Counted from the stretch's first letter, positions 2,413-35,239 are shown. The stretch is DNA of 64,000 bases from an uncultured Candidatus Saccharibacteria bacterium (GCA_964599405.1 CAZRED010000001.1:11528-75527); one strand, 5' to 3'. The notes: a model not told the origin generated them from the sequence alone. Numbers and translations: made by a program.

Positions 2413-3425
2413 ATTGGCTGCGCGACGCCCTGGCTTTGGCTTGGAAATACCTGAAAATCGGTTTTTCATTTGTTGCTAGTGGCACCAGCCGGATCCGCAA
2501 CTGGCTACGCCTGCACGTGCCGTTTATCGAGGCGGTTGTTCAGCGCCACATTCATAATCCGGCCACAATTTTTATCGATATCGCCGTTTTTGTTCTAGGG
2601 CTATATCTAGTCTTTGGCGTTACCGGCTATATCAACGTCTACAACCAAAAATCCGAGAGTCGGTTTTCCGAAGTATTAATGGGCCTCTACCCTTTGCCGG
2701 CTGCCAAAGTCGATAGCTCTTACGTCTGGAGCCACCGTTTTCTGCAGCGACTGCGGTTTTTGAATACCTTTAATTCCCAAGCGCCGGCCGAGGTGAGAGA
2801 CAAGCTGCCAACGGAAGTCGAACTGCGGGAAAAAATTATGGCCGGACTAATTGAAGATCAAGTCGTGTTATTGGAGGCAACTGAATTGGGGGTGCGAGTA
2901 ACGAAAGAAGAGCTGGACGCCGCCTTTGAAGAGCAGAAAAAGCAGACGGAGAATTTCGAGGCCACTTTGAAAGCCCTTTACGGCATGAGCGCCCAAGAAT
3001 TCAAGCAAGTTATTGCCGAACGAATTTTGAAAGAAAAACTCAAGAGCGTGGTACTGCTGCGGGTGAAAGTTCGCCATATTTTAACCGCCACTGAGGGCGC
3101 CGCCCGGGAGGCGCGGACGAAAATCGAGCAGGGTGGAACGTTTGAGGATGTTGCTAAAGAGTACAGCCAGGATACCCAGACTAAAGAGGTCGGCGGCAAT
3201 TTGGGCTACTGGACCACCGGGGAACTAGCCGCCCAGGTATCGACAAACTTTGAGGAGGTCGCCTTTTCTCTGCCAATTAGCCAATTATCTGACCCCATTC
3301 AAACCAAATTCGGTTTTCACGTTATTCAAATCACCGAGCGTAACGAGGGCGAGCCAAAAACCTACGCTGACTGGTACGCCGAAGTTCAGAAAAACCATAC
3401 CGCCAAAGTATATATTCCCTACTAG
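2379..3425 (+). CDS. membrane-anchored PpiC/parvulin-type peptidyl-prolyl isomerase (PrsA/SurA-like)
   Basis: N-terminal TM; C-terminal parvulin domain (VRHILTATEG...GGNLGYWTTGEL...FGFHVIQITER). Confidence 0.75.
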   Translation: MGKLSSITVVLNWLRDALALAWKYLKIGFSFVASGTSRIRNWLRLHVPFIEAVVQRHIHNPATIFIDIAVFVLGLYLVFGVTGYINVYNQKSESRFSEVLMGLYPLPAAKVDSSYVWSHRFLQRLRFLNTFNSQAPAEVRDKLPTEVELREKIMAGLIEDQVVLLEATELGVRVTKEELDAAFEEQKKQTENFEATLKALYGMSAQEFKQVIAERILKEKLKSVVLLRVKVRHILTATEGAAREARTKIEQGGTFEDVAKEYSQDTQTKEVGGNLGYWTTGELAAQVSTNFEEVAFSLPISQLSDPIQTKFGFHVIQITERNEGEPKTYADWYAEVQKNHTAKVYIPY

Positions 3426-4431: not shown

Positions 4432-5489
4432 ACGTTAAAAAGAAACTCCACGACATCGCCGTCTTGGACAGTGTAATCTTTGCCTTCGCTGCGCATTTTG
4501 CCAGCTTCTTTGATCGCTTTTTCGCTGCCGAACTTTTCTAAGTCGGAAACGCTGAATACCTGGGCGCGAATAAAGCCCTTTTCAAAATCGGTGTGGATTT
4601 TTCCGGCGGCCTGCGGCGCTTTGGTACCCTTAGAGATAGTCCAAGCGTGGGATTCTGTCGGCCCGGCGGTAAAAAAGGTAATTAAATTCAGCAATTCGTA
4701 GCCGGCTATGATCATTTCGCCCAGCCCACTCTTTAGCCCCAGCCCTTGGCGATATTCCTGCTGATCAGCTTCCGGCAGTTCCACAATTTCCACTTCCGTT
4801 TTTACCGAGATTGCCACTAACGCAGCACTTTCGCTGGCGGCATGCTTTTGGACGGCTGAAATATCACTGTTTTCATCGTCAATATTTGCCACATACATCA
4901 AAGGTTTGGCTGTGAGAAATTGAAAAGTTCGTAACTCCTCCGCCAGCTCTGGCTTTGTGCGTAGCGGCGTATCATCGTTCAATAGTGTGATTACTTGCTC
5001 TAGAGCGGTGCCGATTTTTACAGCTTCTTTTTCGCCTTTTTTAACTTTTTCTTGATTGTTAGCATATGCTTTTTGAGCTTGCTCCAAATCAGCCAACATC
5101 AGTTCGGTATTAATTGTGGCGATATCGCTATCCGGATCAACCTTGCCGTGAACATGAGTGATATTTGGTTCCTGAAAGCAGCGCACTACTTCGGCAATCG
5201 CATCCACCGAACGAATGTGGCTCAAAAATTTATTTCCCAACCCCTCGCCCTGCGCAGCTCCTTTGACTAACCCGGCAATATCAACAAATTTCATTGTGGC
5301 CGGGACAGTTTTAGCTGCAGCGTATGTTTTTGTTAGAAATTCCAAACGCTCATCCGGCACGTCAACAATCCCGACATTTGGCTCGATAGTGGTAAATGGA
5401 AAATTAGACGCTTGCGCGCCAGCTTTGGTTAAGGCATTAAACAACGACGACTTTCCAACGTTTGGGAGTCCGACAATTCCTATTTCCAT
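4428..5489 (-). CDS. ychF: redox-regulated ribosome-binding ATPase YchF
   Basis: GIVGLPNVGKSSLFNALT G1 motif, C-terminal TGS domain; start moved to MEIGIVGLP (ORF track start 5564 is an upstream extension). Confidence 0.9.
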   Translation of the reverse strand: MEIGIVGLPNVGKSSLFNALTKAGAQASNFPFTTIEPNVGIVDVPDERLEFLTKTYAAAKTVPATMKFVDIAGLVKGAAQGEGLGNKFLSHIRSVDAIAEVVRCFQEPNITHVHGKVDPDSDIATINTELMLADLEQAQKAYANNQEKVKKGEKEAVKIGTALEQVITLLNDDTPLRTKPELAEELRTFQFLTAKPLMYVANIDDENSDISAVQKHAASESAALVAISVKTEVEIVELPEADQQEYRQGLGLKSGLGEMIIAGYELLNLITFFTAGPTESHAWTISKGTKAPQAAGKIHTDFEKGFIRAQVFSVSDLEKFGSEKAIKEAGKMRSEGKDYTVQDGDVVEFLFNV

Positions 5490-5823
5490 CAGGAGAGCGG
5501 TTCGCCGCTCGACTGACGAGCAAAATATCTTTGCGACATAGTGTGATTTTACCGGGAAAACCACTTTCTTGACAGTAGGTTATTCAGGCGATATACATAG
5601 CTAGCACACTGACATGTTAATCCAATAGCAACTAGAACATTGCTTAGTGAGCGTATCCCGCTCACTATTGGTGAAGGCCGTGAGATTCGGCCGCTGTGCC
5701 GCAACGGTTTACTTCGAGCGTAGTCGAGAAGTGAAAGCCCGATCCCAGCTGGATATATTTGTTCCGAGCAGAATATTAATTGTTTCCCCGGTTGCTTGGC
5801 GAGGATTTTTTAGAAAGGGTTTC

Positions 5824-7226: not shown

Positions 7227-7675
7227 TTTCCCTGTTTTTTCTGCCGAATTTCTTCACGAAGGGCCTTGTCGATATCCCGTTTTTTCAGGATTTCTCGTTT
7301 GTCTTTTTTGTTTTTACGGCTGGCCAGACCAATTTTTAGCTTAGCCATGCCTTTTTTCAGGTATAGATCGAGCGGTAGCACTGTGTGATTGCCGCTAGCC
7401 AACTTACCAACGATTCGATTAATTTCGGTGCGATGCAGTAACAATTTGCGGGAGCGATCCGGCTCGACAGCAGCGGCGAAGTTGCCGCCCAACCACCAAA
7501 GTTCAGCTTGGCCGTTAGCAATAAATGGTTTGACGTAGCTGCCGTTAATGTTCACTCGGCGTGCCCGAATCGCTTTAATTTCATCGCCATGCAACGCCAA
7601 ACCCGCCTCCCAGTCCTCATGGATCTGGTAGTCGAATTTCCCCCGTTTGTTTTCAGCGATCGGTTTCATCCCCAA
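7223..7675 (-). CDS. smpB: SsrA-binding protein SmpB
   Basis: Whole-length similarity to SmpB (KPIAENKRGKFDY...GLALHGDEIKAIRARRVN...LLLHRTEI). Confidence 0.9.
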   Translation of the reverse strand: MGMKPIAENKRGKFDYQIHEDWEAGLALHGDEIKAIRARRVNINGSYVKPFIANGQAELWWLGGNFAAAVEPDRSRKLLLHRTEINRIVGKLASGNHTVLPLDLYLKKGMAKLKIGLASRKNKKDKREILKKRDIDKALREEIRQKKQGN

Positions 7676-23406: not shown

Positions 23407-23413
23407 TTTTCTG

Positions 23414-25552
23414 ATGAAATTTTTGAAAGGTCTCCTGGCTGTTGTGCTGGCTGCTACGCCGCTTCTGACTATTGCACCGCAAACGGCATCGGCCCACGAA
23501 AACCTTATCCCTAATCCCTCCGTAGAAACTCCAGCAACTGGCGAAAATCGTCCGGAGAATTGGCAGCCCGGTTTTATTTGGGGTGAATTAAAGCCGTCGT
23601 TTTCATATGAAAACGACGGATTACAAGGCAATCGCTCGGTTAAAGTAGCTGTTAGTAACTACAGCTCCGGCGATGCTAAGTGGTACTTCGACCACGTTAA
23701 TGTTGCGCCAAACCAAGAATATACTTACAGTGATTACTACAAATCCGATGTTGGCACCGAGCTGGTCGCTGAAACTCTCGATTCAGCCGGTAGCGCCTCC
23801 TACCAGTGGCTATCCTGGACTAGCCCGAGCGACCAGTGGAAACCGGTCATTGTCGACTTCACTACCCCTTCTAACGCTGTGAAAGTCTCCGTTTTCCACC
23901 TATTACTTAGTAACGGCTACCTCCAAACTGACGCTTTTTCGCTAACTGACAAACACCCGCCAGGTGGCAACATTCTTAACCCTGGCCTTGAATCAGCCGA
24001 TCCGAACAATGCCAACCAGCCATTTGCCTGGAAAACCGGCTCCTGGGGTAATAATCAACCAACCTATACCTACCAAAACACTGGCTATCAATCCAATCGT
24101 AGTGGCAAGGTTAGTATTGCTAATTTCCAATCGGGCGATGCTAAGTGGTACTTCGAGCCAATTACCGTAGCACCAAGCACCAGCTACCTCTTCGAGGACT
24201 ACTACCGATCAGACATTCTAACCTCGGTAGTTGCCCGGGTTGAGTCAGCCAGTGGTGCTATCTCCTATCTGTGGCTTGGCGACGTAGCGGCTAGCGCAGT
24301 TTGGAAGCAAGCATCCCTACCGATTACGACACCTGCCGACATCAAACAGCTAACTGTTTTTCACCTGTTAGCTGGCAACGGCTATCTAGAAACTGATAGT
24401 TTCAGTTTTTCTGAAATTCAACAGGGGTTAGTGCCAAACCCATCATTTGAAACTGCCGATGCCGGCAACCCGAACATGCCTGCTCAATGGCAAACAAATA
24501 ACTGGGGTAATAACGTCGCCTCATTTGAATACTTAAACAACGGCCACACCGGCAATCACAGCGCCAAGGTTACAGTTAGTAATTACAGCTCCGGCGATGC
24601 TAAATGGTGGTACGAACCGACAGTAATCGAACCTGAAGAAGAATATGCTTTCTCTAATTTTTATCAATCAAATACCTCCACCCGAGTAGTCGTGTGGGTG
24701 GTCACTACTGGCGGCGTTAACCAGTACATCGGCCTGGGGAGTGCTCCAGCCAGCTCGACCTGGACGGAGTTTCACGATACCTTCACGATGCCCGTTAACG
24801 CTGCCCGTGCCGCAATACTCCATATTGTTGAGGGTAACGGTTTCTTAATAGTTGATGACTACTCGCTTGCAATCGGTGAAATTCAAGGATTCAACCGCGG
24901 CCTCGTCACACTAACCTTCGACGACGGCTGGGAAGCCAACGTTTCCACTGCCCTACCAATTATGCAGCAGTACGGCTTCCTCTCTACCCAATTCTACGCC
25001 ACCGGCTTTTTGAACGGCGAAGATTATCAGTCTCTAGCTAACGTTTGGAAATTTATTGACGCTGATCACGAGATTGGTTCGCACTCGGTTACCCACCCCG
25101 ATTTAACGACACTTTCACCAGAAGCACTAGACTATGAGCTGCGCGAATCAAGACGGTTCCTTGAAGATACGTTCGGCGTTAAAATAAAGAACTTCGCTTC
25201 ACCGTTTGGCGCTTACAACAATAATGTTATCCAGGCAATTCAAGGTTATTACGAATCACACCGGAGCGTTGACGTCGGTTACAACAGTAAAGACAACTAC
25301 GATCAGTGGCGTTTCAAGGTTCAGAACATGACTCCTACCACTACTTTGGCCGAATATCAGGCCTGGCTCCAACACGCCAAGAGCAAAAAATTATGGCTGA
25401 TTTTGGTTTATCACAAGGTTGAAAATAGTAATGTTGGCCCGTACGACAGCACGACGGACCAATTTGCTGCTCAAATGGCCGCGCTATCAACCAGCGCTAT
25501 AGTTGTTGCCACCATGCAGCAGGCGATCGAAGAGCTGACACCACAGCTCTAG
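23414..25552 (+). CDS. secreted polysaccharide deacetylase (CE4/NodB homology domain) with three N-terminal CBM4/9-like carbohydrate-binding repeats
   Basis: Signal peptide; three ~150-aa repeats each with NPSxE...W...SGDAKWY(F/Y)...Y; C-terminal TFDDGW, HSVTHPDL, FASPFG motifs of CE4. Confidence 0.8.
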   Translation: MKFLKGLLAVVLAATPLLTIAPQTASAHENLIPNPSVETPATGENRPENWQPGFIWGELKPSFSYENDGLQGNRSVKVAVSNYSSGDAKWYFDHVNVAPNQEYTYSDYYKSDVGTELVAETLDSAGSASYQWLSWTSPSDQWKPVIVDFTTPSNAVKVSVFHLLLSNGYLQTDAFSLTDKHPPGGNILNPGLESADPNNANQPFAWKTGSWGNNQPTYTYQNTGYQSNRSGKVSIANFQSGDAKWYFEPITVAPSTSYLFEDYYRSDILTSVVARVESASGAISYLWLGDVAASAVWKQASLPITTPADIKQLTVFHLLAGNGYLETDSFSFSEIQQGLVPNPSFETADAGNPNMPAQWQTNNWGNNVASFEYLNNGHTGNHSAKVTVSNYSSGDAKWWYEPTVIEPEEEYAFSNFYQSNTSTRVVVWVVTTGGVNQYIGLGSAPASSTWTEFHDTFTMPVNAARAAILHIVEGNGFLIVDDYSLAIGEIQGFNRGLVTLTFDDGWEANVSTALPIMQQYGFLSTQFYATGFLNGEDYQSLANVWKFIDADHEIGSHSVTHPDLTTLSPEALDYELRESRRFLEDTFGVKIKNFASPFGAYNNNVIQAIQGYYESHRSVDVGYNSKDNYDQWRFKVQNMTPTTTLAEYQAWLQHAKSKKLWLILVYHKVENSNVGPYDSTTDQFAAQMAALSTSAIVVATMQQAIEELTPQL
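23495..24866 (+). repeat. three tandem ~450-nt coding repeats (CBM-like modules) inside the deacetylase gene
   Basis: Protein repeats approx aa 28-180, 183-338, 339-485 share NPxxE(T/S)...NxSxKV(x)(V/I)xN(Y/F)xSGDAKW(Y/W)(F/Y). Confidence 0.75.
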
Positions 25553-25558
25553 CTTGTT

Positions 25559-25588
25559 GCATTTTCCCTTACAAAAGCATATACTATT
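25559..25588 (+). promoter_or_regulatory. conserved promoter-like motif CCCTTACAAAAGCATATACTATT (copy 2)
   Basis: Matches copy 1 over ~20 nt; followed by GGGGGG SD-like run and ATG 25621. Confidence 0.45.
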
Positions 25589-25620
25589 GTTCGTAAAAGC
25601 GGGGGGCTAGAAAGTAGCCA

Positions 25621-25740
25621 ATGTATACACTTCCAAAAGCTGGTCCAAGCACCTTCGTTCACTTAATTGCCCTAGTGGTTGCGACTGCTATTGTTTTCGG
25701 TAAATCCGCTTACAAAGCCGTAGTCAAAAGCGCTAAGTAA
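25621..25740 (+). CDS. 39-aa single-TM peptide between deacetylase and GT2 (not in ORF track)
   Basis: MYTLPKAGPSTFVHLIALVVATAIVFGKSAYKAVVKSAK; position matches small IcaD/PgaD-type subunits. Confidence 0.35.
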   Translation: MYTLPKAGPSTFVHLIALVVATAIVFGKSAYKAVVKSAK

Positions 25741-25760
25741 TTTGGCTACATTTTTATTTA

Positions 25761-26780
25761 ATGAATAAAACTACCATTGCGGTAGTGGTTCCTGCATACA
25801 ACGAAGAGAAAGTGATTGGCGCGTCTCTCGCTTCACTGCGCCGTTGTATTGATATGAAGCATGTTTACGTTGCTAGCGACGGTTCGACAGATACAACTGC
25901 CAGTATTGCCCGTAGCTATACTAAAAACGTCTTAAGCCTGCGGAAAAACCGCGGCAAGGCCGGAGCGCTTCAGGCCTTGATTAAAAAGTTCTCCCTCACA
26001 GAAAGCTATAAATACGTCTTCTTTTTTGACGCCGACACCAAGATTGATCGAAACTTTTTACCAGAAATTAAAAAAGTAGTTGCTGCACAGCGCCCCGCCT
26101 GTGTCGTCGGTACCGTTACCAGCACTAAAAACAAGTTAATCAGCGCTTTTCGGGTGTTTGAGTACGGTTTTTCTCATAAATTCTTTAAAAACGCCCAGAA
26201 TTTCATGGGAACTATCGTGATCGCCCCCGGTTGTGCTTCCGTTTACCGGGCGGATGTGTTGGCTAAGCTGGATTTTAGCCGTAGAACCCTAACGGAAGAC
26301 TTGGATTTCACCATTCAAATTCAAAAATACCGCTACGGCAAGGTTGTTTATTGTCCGCGAGCCCGAGTTCTTACCCAAGACCCAATGAGTTTTAGTGACT
26401 TTTGGAATCAAATCACTCGCTGGAATACCGGTTTTTGGCAAAACTTCTTTATCCATCGTCTTTACCAACCAAACCGCAAGCTAAACTTCGAAGTACTGCT
26501 GTTGCTAAGCGACTTCCTGCTTTGGGGTGGATTGCTAGTGTTTGCTCTGTTTGAACCAATCTACTTTTTAGAGCTGTATGCCACGTCTCTATTGATCTTA
26601 ACTGCCATCGCTAGCGGAACGATCGTTGCCGAGAAACAGTATTGGGCCCTGCCGTACGTGCCGTTGTTCAACTTTTTCCAGATCGTTAACACGGTTTCGT
26701 TTGTTTACTCCTTTTTCCGAGCAGTTATTGGCTCTGGCAAACAGTTGTCCTGGCAAAAAGTTTCTCGCTACGCCAACTAA
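25761..26780 (+). CDS. processive family-2 glycosyltransferase (IcaA/PgaC/NodC-like polysaccharide synthase)
   Basis: VVVPAYNEE, DGSTD, FFDADT, TED, QITRW (QxxRW) motifs; two C-terminal TM helices. Confidence 0.8.
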   Translation: MNKTTIAVVVPAYNEEKVIGASLASLRRCIDMKHVYVASDGSTDTTASIARSYTKNVLSLRKNRGKAGALQALIKKFSLTESYKYVFFFDADTKIDRNFLPEIKKVVAAQRPACVVGTVTSTKNKLISAFRVFEYGFSHKFFKNAQNFMGTIVIAPGCASVYRADVLAKLDFSRRTLTEDLDFTIQIQKYRYGKVVYCPRARVLTQDPMSFSDFWNQITRWNTGFWQNFFIHRLYQPNRKLNFEVLLLLSDFLLWGGLLVFALFEPIYFLELYATSLLILTAIASGTIVAEKQYWALPYVPLFNFFQIVNTVSFVYSFFRAVIGSGKQLSWQKVSRYAN

Positions 26781-26858
26781 TCGCTTGTCATATTGCCCGT
26801 GACAGGCAATAAGCAATCTACCGGTTGCTATCAAGAGCTCGCCTGGTAGTATCAAGCC

Positions 26859-28223
26859 ATGCGGCCGGGAGGGTTCACCCTTATCTTGCTAGTAATTGGC
26901 TTATGTTTTTCTGCCTTATTTTCGGTGTTTCCAGCTCAAGCAAAAACCCGGGTTGAGGTAAATATTTTTTTCCCCGGCGCAGCTTGGAATACCAATCTTC
27001 TGAATAACTTCCAAGCTGACTTGGGAATTAAGTTCACCGCCGCCAAGTGGTATATGGACTGGGCCACCGCTTTTGATACCGGCGTGGCTAACCGTTTGAA
27101 CAATAACGGCTACATCCCAGAAATGACTTGGGAGCCGTCGCTAAATAGCAACGGCGTATCCTACGACGACGTTGTTAACGGCATTTACGATCCCTACATT
27201 ATTCAAACCGCCCAGACTGTGAAGAACCTGGGCTTCCCAATTCGGATTGCGTTGGCGCCGGAGATGAACGCTACCTGGACGCCGTGGGGAGGGCTGTCCG
27301 GTAATAATCCTGATAATTTCAAAGCTTTTTGGCAGCACACTGTCCAAATTTTTGACAACCAGGGCGCCAACAACATTACTTGGATTTGGTCGCCGAACGT
27401 CATTCCTTACGGCCCAGAGAGAGTGGGGTCGTACGGGGAAATGTACCCAGGTAATAGCTACGTCGATTACATGGGGCTGGATGGCTATAACTGGGGCACC
27501 AGCCAACCATGGTCGGTTTGGCAGAGCTTCCGGGAGGTATTTTTAGACTCGTATAACGAACTCCTTGGAGTTTCCTCCAAAGATATTTTAATCATGGAGA
27601 TGGCTTCAACGGAGCTGGGCGGCAGCAAGGCGGCCTGGATTACCGATATGTACAACGAACTCCAAAACAGCTTCCCGCGTATCAAGGGCTTCACCTGGTT
27701 TCATATTAATAAAGAAACCGACTGGCGAATTGATTCCAGTGCTAGCGCCAAAGCCAGCTTTGCCGCCGGCTACCACGGTACTGCCGTCGTAACTGCACCA
27801 CCACCAAACACCGCTCCAGCTGGTACCACCAAAACCACCCAACCCAAATCTAACGGCACCGCCCCGGTTGTCGCTACTAATGAGTTGGTCCCAGAAGTGA
27901 CAAATGAACCCCAGCCGAGTCCAGCAGACTACGCCGTGACAACGCCGATTCGGCCAAAAATTGCCGGAACAATTTTAGTGGCAGAGCGAACGTCGATGCG
28001 TTCGCCGGAAAAGCTTCGCCTGCTCGGCGGTATTCTACTTGGCGGCTTAATCGTCGGCGGGTTATTTATTCGTCGGATGCTGTTAATTCATAGTTACGCC
28101 GTCGAGCCTATCCAACCGACTTCGCCCGTTGTGGTTGCGTTGCCAAAGAAACCTGCCGCAAAAAAGATGGACGGCGTTGGAAAAACCAAACCAAAAAAGA
28201 AGAAAAACCAGACGACCAAGTAG
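26859..28223 (+). CDS. membrane-anchored extracellular clan GH-A glycoside hydrolase (GH26-like)
   Basis: Signal peptide, PEMN (acid/base) and STELGG (nucleophile) motifs, YPGNSYVDYMGLDGYNW; Pro/Thr linker, C-terminal TM and Lys-rich tail. Confidence 0.65.
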   Translation: MRPGGFTLILLVIGLCFSALFSVFPAQAKTRVEVNIFFPGAAWNTNLLNNFQADLGIKFTAAKWYMDWATAFDTGVANRLNNNGYIPEMTWEPSLNSNGVSYDDVVNGIYDPYIIQTAQTVKNLGFPIRIALAPEMNATWTPWGGLSGNNPDNFKAFWQHTVQIFDNQGANNITWIWSPNVIPYGPERVGSYGEMYPGNSYVDYMGLDGYNWGTSQPWSVWQSFREVFLDSYNELLGVSSKDILIMEMASTELGGSKAAWITDMYNELQNSFPRIKGFTWFHINKETDWRIDSSASAKASFAAGYHGTAVVTAPPPNTAPAGTTKTTQPKSNGTAPVVATNELVPEVTNEPQPSPADYAVTTPIRPKIAGTILVAERTSMRSPEKLRLLGGILLGGLIVGGLFIRRMLLIHSYAVEPIQPTSPVVVALPKKPAAKKMDGVGKTKPKKKKNQTTK

Positions 28224-29429
28224 CTACTCGTAGCGTAGCGCTCGAACCGGATGTTTGCGGGCGGCGCGGAAGGCGGGGAAAAGACCAAAAACAATTCCGG
28301 TTAATGCCCCCATGCCGATAGCTAGCATAATTGTTGAGTTAGTTAACGCTGGCACCAAAGGCGTGAATTTAGCAACAAGAATGGTCGTTCCCCAGGCCAA
28401 CCCCAACCCAATTAACGCACCAACAATCGTCAGCATGATTGATTCAATCAAAAACTGCAGCATGATCGCCCATTCGGTAGCCCCAACGGCCTTCCGAATA
28501 CCGATTTCCCGGGTGCGCTCGGTGACAGTTACTAACATAATATTGGAGATTCCAATACCGCCAACCAGCAGGGAAATAGCGGCAATGCCAACTACGGCGT
28601 ATTTCAATATGTCGGTAATTTGGGTCACGGAGCCAAGCAGGTCGCTAGATAGTAGAACTGTAAAGTCTGTCGTGCCATGTTTTTTTGTTAATAAGCCAGT
28701 AACTTCGATTTTGGCGGCCTCGACATTGTCGATGTCTTTAGCCTGAACCAGGATCCGACTAACTTGGTTGGATTGGTTGATCTCGCTAGCTAATGTTGCT
28801 GGAATAATTGCCATCTCACCGCTATCGCCAAAGTTCAGCCCGCCGTTTTCCGGCGCGGCGTAAATACCTGCAACGGTAAACTTTTCCGTTCCCAGTTCAA
28901 CTTCAGAACCAATCTCTACTCCTAGCTTTGTGGCGGACGCGGCAGTGATGAAAATCACTTTTTCATTGTCGGCAACGTCGGCTTCAGTCATCTCTCGTCC
29001 ACTTTGCAGATTTTTCAACCCCAGGTTTTCTGGTAGCCCCGGTGTCACGCCCATCGGCAAAACAGTAACTTTTTTATCGCCGTGGCGCAGAATACCGCCC
29101 AAAATCACGGCGTAATCAACCTGGTCTTCGATGGTGGTAGCGTTGGCTTTGAGGTAACCCACATCCTCCACAAAGATCGTTGATGGGGCGAATTGGGCAG
29201 TGAAATTCGGGGTTGAAGCGCCTTCCTCTGTTTCGCCCGGCAAAACAAATATCGCTCGCGGACCGAGGCCTTCGACTTGGTCGGCAATCTGTGCCTGGAT
29301 ACCCTGGGCCAGCGATAGCAGTGTGACAACGGCATAAATGCCAATGACCATACCCAGTAAGGTTAGAAAGCTGCGCATTTTATTAGACCACAAAGATTTT
29401 GAGGCGGTTTTGAAAGCTTCGTACCACAT
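28224..29429 (-). CDS. MacB/FtsX-type ABC transporter permease with large extracytoplasmic domain
   Basis: N-terminal TM, ~250-aa external domain, C-terminal three TM FtsX-like core. Confidence 0.8.
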   Translation of the reverse strand: MWYEAFKTASKSLWSNKMRSFLTLLGMVIGIYAVVTLLSLAQGIQAQIADQVEGLGPRAIFVLPGETEEGASTPNFTAQFAPSTIFVEDVGYLKANATTIEDQVDYAVILGGILRHGDKKVTVLPMGVTPGLPENLGLKNLQSGREMTEADVADNEKVIFITAASATKLGVEIGSEVELGTEKFTVAGIYAAPENGGLNFGDSGEMAIIPATLASEINQSNQVSRILVQAKDIDNVEAAKIEVTGLLTKKHGTTDFTVLLSSDLLGSVTQITDILKYAVVGIAAISLLVGGIGISNIMLVTVTERTREIGIRKAVGATEWAIMLQFLIESIMLTIVGALIGLGLAWGTTILVAKFTPLVPALTNSTIMLAIGMGALTGIVFGLFPAFRAARKHPVRALRYE

Positions 29430-30088
29430 TACTTGTCCCCCACAATTACGCCGTCACGCATTAAGATAGTCCGGCTGGCGTAGCTAAGCAGCTCGTTATT
29501 ATGTGTCACAAACAAAATAGTTTTGCCCTTTTGGTTGATACCTTTGAGGATTTCCATAATTTCCGTGCCGGTTTTAGTGTCCAAGTTGCCGGTCGGTTCA
29601 TCGGCCAAAATTACTTCTGGCTCGGCTACTAAGGCTCGGGCAATTGCCACGCGTTGCTGCTGGCCGCCGGAGAGTTGGTTGGGCGCTTGTTTAATTTTGT
29701 CGCTTAAACCCACTTCTCCGAGCATTTTCAAAACCCGTTCGTGCTTGCCACTGCCGCCACGATAGTTGAGTGGAAGCATGACGTTGTCAAAGGCGGATGT
29801 GCGCGGCAGCAGGTTGAACGATTGGAAAACAAAACCGAAATGCTGGTTACGCAATTTTGCGCGCTCTTTGCCGGAGGTTTCATTAACTTTTTTATCGTTC
29901 AGCAAATATTCACCACTGTCTGGCACGTCCAGCAATCCTAAAATGTTGAGAAGCGTAGATTTACCGCAGCCGCTCGGACCCATAATCGCTACAAACTCGC
30001 CATCGGCAATTTTTAAATTAATGTCTTTGAGGGCGGTGGTTTCTTCACCATCAGTATAGACCCGGGAAATGTTTTTCAGCTCCAGCAT
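29429..30088 (-). CDS. ABC transporter ATP-binding protein (MacB/LolD-like)
   Basis: Walker [10 protein letters not shown], signature [15 protein letters not shown], Walker [12 protein letters not shown]. Confidence 0.9.
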
Positions 30089-30230
30089 ATCTAACTAATA
30101 CTACTAGATTGCCATAGTACCTTCTAGGCACTTGATTGCGAGTATTTTCAGAAATACGAGCAACAAGGCACGAGATAATATGCTGCTCGTGCCTTGACTT
30201 TTACAGGTTTATGTGCTAGCATTCCGACAT

Positions 30231-30613
30231 GGGCCTGACTGGCTTCGACGAGAACATTTACAACCAAATTGGCAAGCGGAAGTGGCCGGCCTTAGAGCCA
30301 CACCCAAATACGTGCAAACGCATTTGAAAAAGCAAAAGCTGGTATCGCTAACTTGTTTAGCGCGCCTACCTTTGCGCCAGCAGTAGCTTAAACACTCACT
30401 GCCGTTTTACTTGATGATTCTACTAATCGGGTAAAGCGCCATATTCGTAGATTGGCCGAGCTGTCCGTGATGCAGTTCGTGCTGAAAATACTTCACTGCT
30501 GTCGTTGGTATTCTGACTGTCTCAAGCCAACGATTTAAGATTTAGACAATCTATGCTTGTAGAAGATTTGGTTAGTAGGTTTTCGGACCCGAGTTCAATT
30601 CTCGGCAGGTCCA
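30231..30613 (+). ncRNA. ssrA: tmRNA (ssrA)
   Basis: 5' GGGCCUGACUGGCUUCGACGAG and 3' UUUCGGACCCGAGUUCAAUUCUCGGCAGGUCCA parallel E. coli GGGGCUGAUUCUGGAUUCGACGGG / UUUCGGACGCGGGUUCAACUCCCGCCAGCUCCA; ends pair; tag ORF GCT at 30347 to TAA at 30389-30391 encodes ANLFSAPTFAPAVA; resume context UAUC-GCU-AAC vs E. coli UAGUC-GCA-AAC; CCA not encoded. Confidence 0.85.
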
Positions 30614-30739
30614 CTTCTCGACTCGTTACACTCGCTCGAAGTAAACCACTTCGGACTCAAGCGGATGACGAATCGACAACTAACTAACAGCACGAGAAAC
30701 CCCGAGCAACGTCGAGGGGCTCTTGCTGTATGATTTTTT

Positions 30740-30997
30740 ATGATGCCCTGGTTTCTATATATAGCTAAAACTCGAACGAAAAAGTTTTATACAGGGATAA
30801 CAATTGACCCACAAAAAAGAATGCGTGATCACAATGCAGGCAGGGGTGCAATGATGGCAATCGAACACGGCCCATTTGAGTTGGTTTACGTTTCTCCTCC
30901 GTTCCCCAATAAATCACTTGCCAGAAAAAGGGAAATTCAAGTTAAAGACTGGTCTCAAGCCAAAAAACTCAAACTAATTTCCGGTGAGATAAAGTAG
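30740..30997 (+). CDS. GIY-YIG nuclease family protein (UPF0213-like)
   Basis: WFLYIAKTRTKKFYTGITIDPQKRMRDHNAG matches GIY-YIG signature. Confidence 0.7.
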   Translation: MMPWFLYIAKTRTKKFYTGITIDPQKRMRDHNAGRGAMMAIEHGPFELVYVSPPFPNKSLARKREIQVKDWSQAKKLKLISGEIK

Positions 30998-31053
30998 GAA
31001 AGGTGGTTTTTTCTTTTGCTCGACAATTCTTGGTCAATAGTTAGGATGAAACT

Positions 31054-31338
31054 ATGAGCCACGAGCTAAAAGCCGGCATTTACCGGCACTACACCGGATT
31101 GATGGTAATAGTCCTGGGTGTAGCTCGGCACAGCGAAACGGAAGAAAAGTTTGTTTGTTATATTCCCCTTGGGCCAAAAGCCGGGCCGCGAATCACGATT
31201 CGGCCATATGAAATGTTTTTTGAAAAAGTTACGAAGGACGGCAAAGAGATCCCCCGTTTTGAATTTATTGATTACGAAATGCCTAAAGATTTAGCCGAAA
31301 GCTACAAAGATATGAAAAACTGGGGTCAACCGGGCTAA
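31054..31338 (+). CDS. DUF1653 domain protein
   Basis: GIYRHYTG...HSETEEKFVCY pattern. Confidence 0.6.
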   Translation: MSHELKAGIYRHYTGLMVIVLGVARHSETEEKFVCYIPLGPKAGPRITIRPYEMFFEKVTKDGKEIPRFEFIDYEMPKDLAESYKDMKNWGQPG

Positions 31339-31375
31339 AAACAAGCCCCGACCTAGTAAAGGTCGGGGCGGGGAG

Positions 31376-31828
31376 TCATGAACAGAGCCTAATCGCGCCT
31401 CCAGGTGGGGGCGGAAGCTCTACTTGATTGAGTAGCGAGTCTGCAAGGACCGCGCAAAAAGAACGAAGAACCAAGAGTCTCTGTTCATCAATCCGTTCTC
31501 CCGCGATCAGGTTGATTAAGTCCGCAACCACTCCTTTTAGGAGTTCAGCACATCCGGTAGAGAGGTTGGCTTTTTCAAGATCGTCGGTTAACCCCTGACA
31601 GGCCGTTGCGATTGAGCACATGGTTTCATTTGGGAATTCTAACCAATACGAACTTTCCATACTCTCAATTGAGTATTTTAGTACCTCAACGAACTCGGAA
31701 AGCCCCGTTCCCTGTATCGCCTCTGGCCCTTTTAACCTTGCTGCATCAAGAGCCCCCGACGCACGGATAGCAATTCCCGTAAGCGTTAGCGGCTCAAGTG
31801 AGAATCGGTCAGCTGTGAACTTTTCCAT
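31376..31828 (-). CDS. hypothetical protein
   Basis: 150 aa, no recognisable motif; start lies at left edge of the AT-rich patch (31850-32650). Confidence 0.4.
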   Translation of the reverse strand: MEKFTADRFSLEPLTLTGIAIRASGALDAARLKGPEAIQGTGLSEFVEVLKYSIESMESSYWLEFPNETMCSIATACQGLTDDLEKANLSTGCAELLKGVVADLINLIAGERIDEQRLLVLRSFCAVLADSLLNQVELPPPPGGAIRLCS

Positions 31829-31901
31829 TATGTTAACCTGCTTGTCTAATTCTTATATATATTTTGGGAGCTCTATTGTCTACAGTACTGAAGTAAGTTC
31901 A

Positions 31902-32642
31902 ATGAAAAATCCAAACTTCTCTAAATTACTAGGACGATTTGAGGGAGACTATCAGTTCAAAAAGTTCATTACCCGCTACGACCTTTCGTGGGATATGTTT
32001 GTGTATGAAATCGAAACAAATCATGGCCGCTGCGCGATTTTCGAGATCGACTTTATAAGCAACTTTAGCGAAGTAAAAAAAGAAATTAAACGAACGGGTA
32101 GTTTTTCTCAATTTATAGAAGTAAAGAAACCCCTAGAGTTCAGACAGGCTATTCCTGTGCGTAAAGCCGTTAAATACACTAAGCCGAGAGTTTGGGAGAA
32201 GATTAGGCTATACGCAAACGAAAAATATGGCTCGTATGATATTTACTTTAATTTTCTCGTGAATGGTTTCAAAGTAAAAAAGAAAATAGAATACGACGAA
32301 TACCATCCGATTTATTACCGGGCAGAGACTTGGAACTACATCCTTCAAAAATTGGGTGGAGATGCAGCGAAAAATTACAATAACAACAAGCCTGGGAAAA
32401 TTGCATTTACAGCTGGTTTGCTTAAAGAACCTGGCTTGCTTCAAGATACTGTTATCGACCTGGATGATGGTGTTGACTACCTGATCGATAAGAGGGTGGC
32501 TAATGAATTAGCGAGTGGAGGGAGATTGATTACTTTGACCCGGCTTTTCGATAAAAAGCAAAAAGAATTTTCTTCCAAAAAAATAATAAACGCTATCAAG
32601 AATGGACCGACGTTTGACCAGATAACGATAAAGCAAGTGTGA
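31902..32642 (+). CDS. hypothetical Lys-rich protein in AT-rich (low-GC) segment
   Basis: Start set at MKNPNFSKLL; local GC far below window average; no known domain. Confidence 0.5.
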   Translation: MKNPNFSKLLGRFEGDYQFKKFITRYDLSWDMFVYEIETNHGRCAIFEIDFISNFSEVKKEIKRTGSFSQFIEVKKPLEFRQAIPVRKAVKYTKPRVWEKIRLYANEKYGSYDIYFNFLVNGFKVKKKIEYDEYHPIYYRAETWNYILQKLGGDAAKNYNNNKPGKIAFTAGLLKEPGLLQDTVIDLDDGVDYLIDKRVANELASGGRLITLTRLFDKKQKEFSSKKIINAIKNGPTFDQITIKQV

Positions 32643-32689
32643 AATCATACCTGCACCCCTAAATCAGAAGGTATTTAAAAGGGAGCGCT

Positions 32690-32887
32690 TTACACGCTCC
32701 CAATGACCATGTTCAACACTTCTGCGGTTATTCTTTGTGATTCCTCTAGCATCTCAAGGCTTTGCTTAAGTTGAGTACTGCGTCCGCTCTTCTTCCATTG
32801 CTCAATCATTTCTTCAGCGGTCGTGATCTCAAAAAGTATGCCCTCACAAGGATCAGCTTTCTTTGGTTGTTTTTCTTTCTTTGGCAT
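32690..32887 (-). CDS. small charged hypothetical protein (65 aa)
   Basis: MPKKEKQPKKADPCEGILFEITTAEEMIEQWKK...; longer ORF-track version overlaps next gene. Confidence 0.25.
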   Translation of the reverse strand: MPKKEKQPKKADPCEGILFEITTAEEMIEQWKKSGRSTQLKQSLEMLEESQRITAEVLNMVIGSV

Positions 32888-33017
32888 GTGCGCATCTCCA
32901 AGGGATGTTGGCATGATTATTGCTCTTTTCGGATTGATTTTCCAGACATCGCAGGTATCATGAGCGAAGCAATCCACCCCCTGGGAGTGGCTGCACATTC
33001 CCAGTTTGGAGAAATCT

Positions 33018-33632
33018 ATGAACGAAGCAGAAGTACTTACAATTTTCAATGAAGTTGGGACGATTATCACCGGCCACTACATCTTCACTTCTGGAATGCA
33101 CGGCAAGACCTACGTTAACAAAGACGCGATCTACCCGTACACGGCTAAAGTTTCGCGACTCTGCTTGAGCTTGGCTGGGGAGTTCACGAGTAGTAAGGTC
33201 GACACTATCGTCGCTCCGGCCATTGGTGCCATTGTTCTGTCGCAGTGGACAGCTCACCACTTAAGCGGCTTAATCGGCCGGGAAATACTAGCAGCCTACG
33301 CCGAGAAGGATGAAGACGGCTTTATGGCCATTAATCGCGGTTACGATAAGCTCGTCACCGGCAAAAACGTCCTGGTAGTGGAGGATGTCCTCAACACCGG
33401 CGGCTCGGCAAGGAGAGTGGTTGAAGCGGTTCGAGCGATTGGTGGTAATGTGGTTGGCGTCGGCGCGCTCTGCAATCGCGGCGGAGTGACTGTAGAAATG
33501 ATTGGAGACGTTCCAAAACTTATCAGTCTCACTAACCTAAACTTTGAAAAGTGGGAAAGAGACGACTGCCCGCTCTGCAAACAAAACATCCCAATTAACG
33601 AATACTTCGGAAAAGGCTGCAAGTTTGCGTAA
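33018..33632 (+). CDS. type I phosphoribosyltransferase (orotate PRTase-like) with extra C-terminal CxxC
   Basis: PRPP-binding loop VLVVEDVLNTGGSA; N-terminal GHYIFTSGMHGKTYVNKDAIY like PyrE; C-terminal DDCPLCKQ not typical of PyrE. Confidence 0.65.
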   Translation: MNEAEVLTIFNEVGTIITGHYIFTSGMHGKTYVNKDAIYPYTAKVSRLCLSLAGEFTSSKVDTIVAPAIGAIVLSQWTAHHLSGLIGREILAAYAEKDEDGFMAINRGYDKLVTGKNVLVVEDVLNTGGSARRVVEAVRAIGGNVVGVGALCNRGGVTVEMIGDVPKLISLTNLNFEKWERDDCPLCKQNIPINEYFGKGCKFA

Positions 33633-33670
33633 TGTCAGCAACAGCAAGCACTCTGAGGTTAGTTTCTATC

Positions 33671-33700
33671 GGCCGTCATCGCAAGATGACGGCCTTTTTT
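33671..33700 (+). terminator. rho-independent terminator
   Basis: GGCCGTCATC-GCAA-GATGACGGCC then TTTTTT. Confidence 0.85.
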
Positions 33701-33710
33701 CTTTTGCCTA

Positions 33711-33744
33711 AAAAATGCCCCGCCGGTTGGAAAGCGGCGGGGCT
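33711..33744 (-). terminator. rho-independent terminator for the minus-strand gene ending at 33780
   Basis: GCCCCGCCG-loop-CGGCGGGGC followed by TTTTTT on the minus strand. Confidence 0.7.
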
Positions 33745-33779
33745 ATTCGTTAGACTAGTACGTTGCGGTAGTAAAAGTG

Positions 33780-34379
33780 CTATGCCTGGGGCGGGGTGGG
33801 TGGGTCGCTCTTGCGGCCGTGCTGCAAATCTATCACCCGACGACGGGTGTCGTAGAGCATGATCAGAATTAAAATCAGTAAGAAAAAAGACGGGATGACA
33901 AAATAAGTTAGTAAGGCGCTAGTTTCGCCACTGGTACCGGAGAAGAATTCAAAGACGCCCCGGTCAGTATCGTCGGTAGTAACTGGCGTGGTTTTGGTTG
34001 GGTCAGTACTGTTAGTTGCTTGATCGGCATCCGTAGCCGTTGTACTAGCCGTCCCATCGGCTGAACTGGTACCGCCGCCGGTTGAGGTGGTGCCGCTACC
34101 AGAGCCACTCGTGCCGCCGCTTTCAGTGGTTCCCTCACCGGTCGAGGTAGTGCCGCCGCTTTCAGTTTCGGGAGTAACGTCAGGGTCGGGTGTTGGTTCG
34201 GGGTCAGGAGTTGGATCGGGAGTTGGCTCGGGCTCTTCGGTAGGTGGCGGTTCACTCTGGGAGGCCGCAAAGAAGTATTGGCGCATTCCGATAGCACCGT
34301 AAAGCAAGGCAATAACGACGATAATTGATAGAACAACGGCGGTAGCACGGCCAGATTGGACAAGTGGCTTGTTCAGCAT
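33780..34379 (-). CDS. bitopic membrane protein with Pro/Thr/Asp and Gly/Thr/Ser low-complexity extracellular region
   Basis: N-terminal and C-terminal TM helices flanking PEPTPDPTPDPEPTPDP and GTTSTGEGTTESGG repeats. Confidence 0.5.
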   Translation of the reverse strand: MLNKPLVQSGRATAVVLSIIVVIALLYGAIGMRQYFFAASQSEPPPTEEPEPTPDPTPDPEPTPDPDVTPETESGGTTSTGEGTTESGGTSGSGSGTTSTGGGTSSADGTASTTATDADQATNSTDPTKTTPVTTDDTDRGVFEFFSGTSGETSALLTYFVIPSFFLLILILIMLYDTRRRVIDLQHGRKSDPPTPPQA

Positions 34380-34534: not shown

Positions 34535-35239
34535 ATGACTAAGATCCGATTACTGCTTCGCGAGCTGCGCCAAGCCAACGAATTAAGCCAAGAAGAACTG
34601 GCCCAGGCGCTACAAGTATCGCGTCAATCGATTATTTCGCTGGAACACGGTGAGTATCTGCCAAGTACACCGGTATTGCTGGCAATGATGGACTTTTTTG
34701 GCTGTCCCGTTGACCAGCTTTTCACTGGCTACGAGTTCAAAATTCGCCAAATAACTAACGATCAACCGGAGGAAGGGGTTGAGCAGACAATGCAACAAAC
34801 ACCAACCAATAATCCATTCAGCCAATTGGACCACCTGCATGAAGAAATGAACGACATGGTGGAAAAGACGTTCGGCCGCGGCGATTGGTCGCGCTCACTG
34901 GGCAATGTGGCAGGAGCAATGAACATCCATGAGACAGCCAAAGACTACGAAGTTCAGTTTCAGGTGCCTGGCTACGCTGATGAGGAACTAAATATTGAGA
35001 TCTCTGATAATACCCTGACCGTAACGGGGGCCAAAAAAGCCGCCGAAGAAGAAAAAAGCAAAAACCTGGTTCGCCGAGAGTGGCAACACAGTGAGTTTTC
35101 CCGATCCGTTCGCTTTGCCGCGCCAATCAAAGAAGACAAAGTGGAGGCCAAGCTGGAACACGGGACGTTGACGATTACCGCGCCAAAAGTAGAGCCGGTC
35201 AAACCAAAAATTAAGAAGATTTCAGTGAAAAAGAAGTAA
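34535..35239 (+). CDS. HTH (XRE/Cro-C1 type) domain fused to Hsp20/alpha-crystallin domain
   Basis: N-term LRELRQANELSQEELAQALQVSRQSIISLEHGEYLPS; C-term ACD (DYEVQFQVPGYADEELNIEISDNTLTVTG...REWQHSEFSRSVRFAAPI...AKLEHGTLTITAPK). Confidence 0.75.
   Translation: MTKIRLLLRELRQANELSQEELAQALQVSRQSIISLEHGEYLPSTPVLLAMMDFFGCPVDQLFTGYEFKIRQITNDQPEEGVEQTMQQTPTNNPFSQLDHLHEEMNDMVEKTFGRGDWSRSLGNVAGAMNIHETAKDYEVQFQVPGYADEELNIEISDNTLTVTGAKKAAEEEKSKNLVRREWQHSEFSRSVRFAAPIKEDKVEAKLEHGTLTITAPKVEPVKPKIKKISVKKK

Follow-up and report, generated by a model that had tools for sequence, protein, structure and literature searches.

Replacement-type flexible genomic islets occupy the same site with a different cassette in each strain, and their cargo consists of surface-polysaccharide or defence clusters. 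Transfer-messenger RNA (tmRNA) genes, for their part, are classic integration sites of genomic islands (PMC3146451, PMC11915505), the vcr islands at the 3' end of the tmRNA gene (ssrA) of Dehalococcoides being an example (PMC3146451). GIY-YIG nucleases are likewise found at stable RNA genes: SegB of T4 is a GIY-YIG homing enzyme within a tRNA cluster (PMC2330249), and GIY-YIG open reading frames (ORFs) are known in rRNA gene insertions of the Candidate Phyla Radiation (CPR, Patescibacteria) (PMC11270868) and are among the genes predicted as transferred from Patescibacteria (PMC12455944), with no mention of tRNA or tmRNA adjacency in CPR in either of the last two papers. We analysed a stretch of 64,000 nucleotides from an uncultured Candidatus Saccharibacteria bacterium (GCA_964599405.1 CAZRED010000001.1:11528-75527; "the window", positions being counted from its first letter), in which ssrA is followed by several small genes, among them one for a phosphoribosyltransferase (PRTase). 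A sequence-only reading of this segment had proposed that a cryptic islet, mobile or serving defence, might have used the tmRNA 3' end as its integration site or, alternatively, that the PRTase is simply pyrE.

The locus is probably a conserved chromosomal ssrA-pyrE neighbourhood of a Patescibacteria lineage with a small flexible slot, and not an integrated element. The conserved order would run from an ABC transporter through ssrA, a small GIY-YIG gene, a short variable slot and pyrE to a variable membrane protein, a helix-turn-helix (HTH)-HSP20 fusion and a peptidyl-prolyl isomerase (PPIase). The PRTase would be the orotate phosphoribosyltransferase (OPRT) of the lineage at its ancestral position, paired with pyrF in half of the related genomes. 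Turnover would be limited to 1.9 kb between the terminator-like T-tract of the GIY-YIG gene and the pyrE promoter, with different small genes in each relative, presumably exchanged by recombination between the conserved flanks. In the window this slot would have come to hold a pair made of DUF1653 and a two-module protein, split by a 563-bp ORFan insert, and one relative (L112) would have lost the slot together with pyrE.

Gene order and the variable slot

The features listed by the sequence-only reading were all recovered with ARAGORN, Rfam, Pfam, a terminator scan and G+C profiles, namely the tmRNA, the GIY-YIG, DUF1653 and PRTase genes, small ORFs, the terminator pair and a low-GC patch. 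Eighty related genomic loci were then compared for PRTase homologues, and close relatives were reached via GIY-YIG homologues and the nearest PyrE matches. The closest relative, locus L121 (protein identities of 89% for the ABC ATPase, 85% for GT2, 86% for HTH-HSP20 and 80% for the PPIase), agrees with the window in its gene order, namely GT2, GH, FtsX (minus strand), ABC (minus), ssrA, GIY-YIG, two small minus-strand genes, pyrE, the membrane protein (minus), HTH-HSP20, an ORF (minus) and the PPIase (minus). The genes of the segment had been described as unrelated to their flanks, which holds for their functions but not for their position, since their order relative to the flanks is kept in L121. 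Because L121 keeps this order and its PyrE is the sister of that of the window, pyrE appears to be ancestral at this site. Parsimony from L112 and L120 alone had favoured the insertion of a DUF1653-pyrE block in the window lineage, a reconstruction that was overturned by L121.

Locus L112 (~80% nucleotide identity) keeps the ssrA, GIY-YIG, membrane protein, HTH-HSP20 and PPIase genes and lacks window positions 31022-33708 (slot and pyrE), in place of which it has 322 bp with an unrelated 70-aa ORF. The more distant L120 shares the outer flanks; the block FtsX-ABC-ssrA-GIY-YIG enclosed by them is inverted, and pyrE is missing there. Absence of the whole segment was not what these relatives displayed: the GIY-YIG gene follows ssrA in L112, L120 and L121 alike, L121 keeps pyrE as well, and the lineage-specific part comprises only positions 31029-32932. 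Farther away, 5 of the 80 distant loci have ssrA ahead of pyrE in the same orientation, at a distance of 0.9-4 kb, one of them, L016, as a compact smpB-ssrA-pyrF-pyrE array. A linkage of the form ssrA-(pyrF)-pyrE recurs across Patescibacteria.

The DNA identity to L121 amounts to 90-98% in ssrA, ~60-70% in the GIY-YIG gene, ~66% in pyrE and >80% at the terminators, and the region ~31029-32932 is unalignable. This 1.9-kb slot of lineage-specific small genes (31029..32932), delimited by blastn, a MAFFT identity profile, junction alignments and tblastn, has a left edge that agrees in three independent comparisons within 31019-31030 (L112 at 31021, L121 at ~31029, and L082 from 31019/31020). The conserved left junction, GGTGGTTTTTTCTTTTGCTCGACAATT (31002..31028; aligned to L121, L112 and L082), is identical in L121 over 27 nt as aligned, and the homology of L112 stops there after TTTTTTCTTTT. 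A promoter-like site at 31020-31047 is the predicted promoter of DUF1653, and its -35 box falls inside the left junction. On the right, the edge of the slot in the comparison with L121 falls at 32933, at the predicted pyrE promoter. The slot content is different in each relative compared, L121 having 0.69 kb there, in which a 91-aa ORF and a gene for a DUF5674 protein are found, both small and on the minus strand. The suggestion of something variable downstream of ssrA was thus sound as regards the flexible slot at 31029-32932, but its boundaries are other than those proposed, and pyrE and the GIY-YIG gene are not its cargo. The slot presumably turns over through recombination between its left and right flanks, both of which are well conserved.

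A perfect 13-bp direct repeat, TTTTTTCTTTTGC, is present at 31007-31019 and 33695-33707 and coincides with both L112 breakpoints. It was considered as an att site or target-site duplication and rejected, as at least two matches were obtained in 8% of shuffles, L121 has the left copy only, and the pyrE gene between the copies is likely ancestral. The repeat is put down to a terminator tail that is similar by coincidence.

The phosphoribosyltransferase gene

The start of the PRTase gene (33018..33632, plus strand; 204 aa) was set to an ATG preceded by a GGAG Shine-Dalgarno sequence. A TTG start was tried and discarded: an exact look-up with that form found no contigs and one with the ATG form did, the latter being the only form held in the public collection. 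The protein matches PF00156 (E 5e-10), and its loop for binding of phosphoribosyl pyrophosphate (PRPP), VLVVEDVLNTGGS, is invariant or nearly so in the family alignment. It aligned over its full length to TIGR01367 (pyrE_Therm; model positions 2-183 of 187) with 133.2 bits against a cutoff of 150.25, and it scored 51 bits with TIGR00336, whose cutoff is 107. The best solved relative is the OPRT 4PAW (E 7e-14), with which the CPLC motifs align. More than 1,500 homologues with 55-62% identity were found, mostly in Patescibacteria. The C-terminal CxxC had been taken for atypical, and it is not: CPLC (residues 184-187), C49 and C152 are kept without exception by the 30 family members aligned, and CPLC is also present in 4PAW. 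As a separate observation, the four invariant cysteines of this PyrE-like family (C49, C152, C184 and C187) suggest a metal site.

In 41 of the 80 related loci, the gene for orotidine monophosphate (OMP) decarboxylase, pyrF, ends at the start of the PRTase gene and has the same orientation (Pfam OMPdecase, E down to 1e-46), and this is also the arrangement in L122. The composition of pyrE in the window is typical of the host, with a GC of 0.506 and a GC3 of 0.585 compared to host means of 0.488 and 0.522. PyrE of the window and PyrE of L121 are each other's best match, and in a neighbour-joining tree they are sisters (72% bootstrap), both on long branches. We propose that the PRTase is PyrE, which would convert orotate and PRPP to OMP. 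The alternative offered by the sequence-only reading, that the PRTase is simply pyrE, was the one borne out, on account of the pyrF linkage in the family, the full-length TIGR01367 alignment, the host-typical composition and the sister relationship to a positional orthologue in L121. A PRTase beside ssrA in CPR genomes is accordingly not to be read as a defence effector or as island cargo. As the family is usually labelled just "phosphoribosyltransferase", the PyrE call is useful for annotation and for the metabolic reconstruction of these reduced genomes.

The predicted pyrE promoter (TTGATT-16-TATCAT, from a promoter scan) and the 5' leader occupy 32934..33017 (plus strand), at the right edge of the slot. 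Promoter and leader (32953-33017) are ~92% identical to L121 over ~65 nt, as counted from the alignment, compared to ~66% for the coding sequence. A regulatory RNA in the leader was considered and rejected, as its fold was not significant (z -1.6 and -0.1) and Rfam returned no match. At the other end, the terminator scan placed a convergent pair at 33671..33744 between pyrE (plus strand) and the gene for the 199-aa membrane protein (minus), with hairpins at 33671-33694 (plus) and 33737-33720 (minus). Both hairpins are kept in L121, and the second one also in L112.

An uncontrolled reading of the ARAGORN tables shows that many loci, besides the five with a tmRNA gene, have a tRNA gene at less than 1 kb in front of pyrE or the pyrF-pyrE unit and in the same orientation, the identity of the tRNA varying (loci L017, L022, L028, L032, L043, L047, L050, L055, L058, L059, L065, L077 and L081 are included). 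Such tRNA genes may be a sign of read-through expression or of a hotspot common to both.

The GIY-YIG gene, the slot genes and their surroundings

The stand-alone GIY-YIG nuclease-domain protein (30740..30997, plus strand; Pfam PF01541, E 2e-15) has 85 aa, all of which correspond to the catalytic domain (model positions 2-77 of 78). No appended DNA-binding domain was found in this protein, and its homologues have 82-110 aa. There are 104 homologues with 40-88% identity across Patescibacteria and Omnitrophota, the identities being 88% for L112, 76% for a Berkelbacteria protein and 60-65% for several other CPR groups and Omnitrophota. Conservation across lineages is higher for this protein (76% to Berkelbacteria) than for PyrE (62% at most). 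The GC of the gene is 0.403 (z -3.4). In the GIY-YIG tree, the window and L112 copies are sisters (99%), and the L121 copy, although placed at the same site, belongs to another subclade, being 84% identical to P0289 and joining window and L112 in 0 of 100 bootstraps. As the copy at the identical position in L121 falls in a different subclade, the phylogeny points to an in situ swap (allele replacement) of the ssrA-adjacent copy.

Of the ten small GIY-YIG ORFs in all fetched loci, nine have a tRNA or tmRNA gene on their own strand no more than 270 bp away, compared to a background of 9-13% among ORFs with 100 aa or more; this sample of 10 ORFs includes 4 from one lineage, and 5 of the 9 adjacent ORFs come from loci fetched independently of GIY-YIG. 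The nine are those of the window (30740-30997), L006 (2248-2550), L039 (~2540-2780, minus strand), L059 (~5272-5685 and 7267-7560), L081 (5365-5604), L112, L120 and L121. The exception, in L114, borders recombinase fragments, an IS21 IstB gene and a HamA-like gene. In L039 (2417-2862) the GIY-YIG ORF is found among two tRNA-Asp copies, whose 5' parts are identical over 52 nt, and a 35-nt 3' arm that is repeated, and in L081 (5305-5766) tRNA-Ala fragments of 25-33 nt are present on either side of the ORF. These duplications of tRNA pieces look like an insertion footprint. No duplication of tRNA or tmRNA fragments around the GIY-YIG gene was detected in the window or L121, and no repeat was found in 30200-31100.

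Three further observations concern these genes. In L006, the stretch from the GIY-YIG gene to ssrA contains ~4 tandem copies of a 61-bp unit (2557-2775), which are 98-100% identical. For the window protein (P0293), the public NCBI record apparently holds only a 48-aa product corresponding to its C-terminal part (100% identity, 56% coverage). The complete ORF of 85 aa begins right at the U-tract of the terminator-like hairpin of ssrA and has no visible Shine-Dalgarno sequence.

This hairpin belongs to the structured spacer (30615..30739, plus strand) between ssrA (30231..30614, plus strand; ARAGORN, and Rfam RF00023 with 121.8 bits) and the GIY-YIG gene. The RNA fold of the 125-nt spacer has two hairpins, the second at ~30687-30729 followed by the U-tract that abuts the GIY-YIG ATG, and an energy of -40.2 kcal/mol (z -4.0; 0 of 200 shuffles were equally stable). 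The changes in the stem among window, L112 and L121 (CCCC/GGGG, CCUC/GAGG and CCCU/AGGG), read by eye off the alignment, are compensatory. The spacer is probably the ssrA terminator or a processing region. The tmRNA itself is 93% identical to that of L121 and 87.5% to that of L112. Its tag peptide, ANAFEKAKAGIANLFSAPTFAPAVA, is long (25 aa) and nearly the same in L112 and L121, with one residue different in L121, and the L120 tag has 13 aa with the similar ending PTFAPALA.

Inside the slot, the first gene encodes a 94-aa DUF1653 protein (31054..31338, plus strand; Pfam PF07866, E 2e-18), which matches the uncharacterised protein of PDB 3BE3 (E 1e-8), is 87% identical to P0122 in L082, and has a GC close to the host mean; an exact look-up with it found no contigs. 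The Logan assembly of SRR6868922 (L001) breaks at window position 31307, inside this gene, possibly by strain heterogeneity or a second DUF1653 context. A G+C-rich hairpin (31345..31369; 10 pairs, 8 of them GC), scored by the terminator scan as a minus-strand terminator, separates it from the convergent gene orph150 (31376..31828, minus strand). The next gene encodes a 246-aa two-module protein (31902..32642, plus strand), and a 65-aa ORF (32690..32887, minus strand), which was beyond the earlier gene list and is called as a gene on a Logan contig, comes last; it has a terminator-like hairpin at 32701-32681 and no family matches. The two divergent genes had been described as orphans. They do form a divergent pair without annotation, and the 150-aa protein is a true ORFan, with no homologue in 5.8 billion proteins and no Pfam, PHROG or PADLOC match, but for the 246-aa protein 86 representative homologues were found, most of which consist of one module and have 110-130 aa.

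The 246-aa protein consists of an N module (~1-121) and a C module (~135-243), with the end ...NGPTFDQI, for which AlphaFold gave pLDDT values of 96.5 and 93.2, respectively. Foldseek returned no PDB match below E 0.1 for either module, and profile searches against PDB sequences gave nothing significant. Its gene has a GC of 0.381 (z -4.2) and accounts for the low-GC patch, of 0.36-0.39 at 31850-32600 compared to 0.485 for the whole window. In L082, a DUF1653 gene (the 87% homologue), which is preceded by a nucleoside deoxyribosyltransferase-like gene, overlaps by 4 bp the next gene, whose product is homologous to the 246-aa protein with 53% identity, and in L083 the order of the two is reversed. 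As both are linked in these other contexts, the DUF1653 and 246-aa genes seem to be a travelling pair. In the window this pair is split by the 563-bp insert with orph150, which is unique in the window and among all loci. The link is limited to the closest relatives: pairing of DUF1653 with the two-module protein was absent in 22 more distant DUF1653 loci, whose contexts are unrelated. Stand-alone N- and C-module genes were also considered as neighbours of each other, which was rejected, the gene after the N-module gene in L084 encoding an unrelated membrane protein. In other bacteria, a tyrosine integrase and a Replic_Relax gene immediately precede a stand-alone C-module gene (L087/L088, 2946-3287). 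Weak matches to immunity-like families (YezG-like, E 0.03-0.04; CdiI, E 0.67; anti-CRISPR, E 0.34) were insignificant and were not used.

Two neighbours of the segment deserve a description. The 199-aa membrane protein (33780-34379, minus strand) has N- and C-termini with 83-89% identity to L121 and an unrelated central part, rich in Thr, Ser, Gly and Pro, where its L121 counterpart has a Big_1 domain; it looks like a hypervariable surface protein. Beyond it, positions 34535-35239 encode a fusion of an Xre-type HTH to HSP20/alpha-crystallin, an unusual small heat-shock architecture, with identities of 84% in L112, 86% in L121 and 60% in L120. On the other side of ssrA, L112 (6702-6769) lacks window positions 23410-29970, 6.5 kb with a 712-aa gene, GT2, GH, FtsX and most of the ABC ATPase. 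This gap is a clear lineage-specific deletion, because a 46-aa remnant of the ABC ATPase persists beside ssrA.

Alternative explanations and comparison with known systems

Several observations weigh against a conserved ssrA-pyrE neighbourhood with a flexible slot. L112 and L120 have no pyrE here, which would indicate a gain if L121 were an outlier, although such a gain would need to be common to L121 and the window. PyrE is 62% identical between window and L121, compared to 79-89% for flanking proteins, and the support for their sister relationship is only moderate (72%); accordingly, pyrE may instead have been replaced by a divergent allele at this site. PyrE also stays below the trusted cutoff of TIGR01367 (133 vs 150 bits), and no pyrF or other pyr gene was found within the 64-kb window. 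In addition, the GIY-YIG and 246-aa genes are low-GC outliers, consistent with a horizontal origin, and the mechanism proposed for the slot turnover is inferred.

Could the segment be a decayed genomic island, once site-specifically integrated at the ssrA 3' end, that lost its integrase and distal att site and left the small genes, possibly with pyrE, as leftover cargo? The preference of islands for tmRNA genes would agree with this, and so would the fall in similarity to relatives right at the ssrA 3' end, the low-GC genes, the variation of content among relatives and the C-module homologue that other bacteria carry beside an integrase and a Replic_Relax gene. However, the last 21 or 30 nt of ssrA occurred a single time in the 64 kb with up to 3 mismatches allowed, and hence the direct repeat expected near 33.7 kb, or elsewhere in the window, was not found. 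No recombinase domain was detected by Pfam in any ORF of the segment, tblastn of the window with a tyrosine integrase, serine recombinase fragments, IstB and Replic_Relax gave nothing, and neither phage nor plasmid families were matched, PHROGs returning only a generic PRTase family. Moreover, L121 keeps the succession of ssrA, GIY-YIG, pyrE, HTH-HSP20 and PPIase around its own slot, with a PRTase of housekeeping type; as the GIY-YIG gene and pyrE are positionally conserved, the variable part begins 400 bp past ssrA and not at its 3' end. Together with the recurrence of the ssrA-pyrE linkage in distant lineages, these data make a mobile islet integrated at the tmRNA 3' end very improbable. A cryptic anti-phage defence with a PRTase effector, as in ShosTA or the retron-type PRTase effectors, fares still worse and is effectively refuted. 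Apart from the location in a variable region, what speaks for it is a sub-threshold PADLOC match of the PRTase to ShosT (E 0.0065, 14 bits), but this covers ~50 residues at the generic PRPP-binding loop, whereas the alignments to PyrE models and a solved OPRT are full length and the family is operonic with pyrF. The other five of the six proteins had no PADLOC match, no partner gene (ShosA, reverse transcriptase) was found, and the composition of the gene is that of the host.

A more serious competitor, yet still an unlikely one in our judgement, starts from the GIY-YIG gene, which would be a free-standing, homing-endonuclease-like selfish gene targeting the ends of tRNA-like genes, here ssrA, so that breaks and gene conversion swap its alleles. 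With a similarly low likelihood, co-conversion or scrambling of the adjacent DNA would also create the variable slot. The frequent adjacency to tRNA and tmRNA genes is in favour of this, as are the duplicated tRNA fragments in L039 and L081, the different subclade in L121 after an ssrA of 93% identity, the immediate 3' flank of the GIY-YIG gene conserved over 27 nt as aligned, the low GC, the better conservation across phylum-level groups than that of PyrE, and the literature on GIY-YIG genes cited above (PMC11270868, PMC12455944, PMC2330249). By contrast, known GIY-YIG homing enzymes obtain their specificity from a DNA-binding domain, which the 85-aa protein does not have, and the window and L121 are free of flanking fragment duplications. 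The sample is small, the gene is present in all four relatives having the site rather than sporadically, and its adjacency could stem from being transcribed together with stable RNA genes or from a function connected to them. Extended to Patescibacteria at large, the same evidence might suggest that the minimal, stand-alone GIY-YIG genes of ~85 aa are mobile and travel with tRNA and tmRNA genes as homing-like passengers, exchanged between lineages at one and the same site beside the RNA gene, that make the neighbouring DNA a hotspot of turnover of which the slot is one consequence, a proposal to which we give little credence. Equally tentative is the corollary that they sometimes leave duplicated tRNA fragments and that the slot captured a travelling module of DUF1653 and the two-domain protein.

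We therefore favour the conserved ssrA-pyrE neighbourhood with a flexible slot, an outcome that is mostly deflationary for the island and defence question. What remains of interest is the association of GIY-YIG with stable RNA genes and the uncharacterised two-module family, either of which may matter more than the verdict on the locus. The adjacency to tRNA and tmRNA genes and the in situ swap extend the known link of GIY-YIG to CPR rRNA gene insertions, and the two confidently folded small modules, without a solved structural relative, are linked to DUF1653 and, elsewhere, to an integrase.

Compared with the ssrA islands of Dehalococcoides, the locus shares variable, partly low-GC DNA downstream of the tmRNA gene whose content differs between close relatives. 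It differs in having no integrase and no duplicated ssrA 3' end, and in a variable part of only 1.9 kb that starts after a conserved GIY-YIG gene and is followed by a pyrE that appears ancestral. With T4 SegB and the ORFs of CPR rRNA insertions, the GIY-YIG gene has in common the catalytic domain, a stable RNA gene beside it, a discordant phylogeny, a spread across lineages and, in L039 and L081, the flanking tRNA-fragment duplications; unlike those, it encodes 85 aa without a DNA-binding domain, and is chromosomal and positionally stable in four relatives. The PRTase resembles the OPRT of Thermus and Helicobacter type (TIGR01367, 4PAW) in its full-length alignment, the VLVVEDVLNTGGS loop, the CPLC motif, a size of ~200 aa and the operonic association of its family with pyrF, and it departs from them in its sub-cutoff score, the four cysteines invariant in the Patescibacteria clade, the lack of an adjacent pyrF here and its long branch. 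Finally, the slot is very small (0.3-1.9 kb) for a replacement-type flexible genomic islet and carries tiny genes of unknown function, but it resembles such islets in doing without a dedicated recombinase and in holding, between conserved flanks, unrelated content in each relative.

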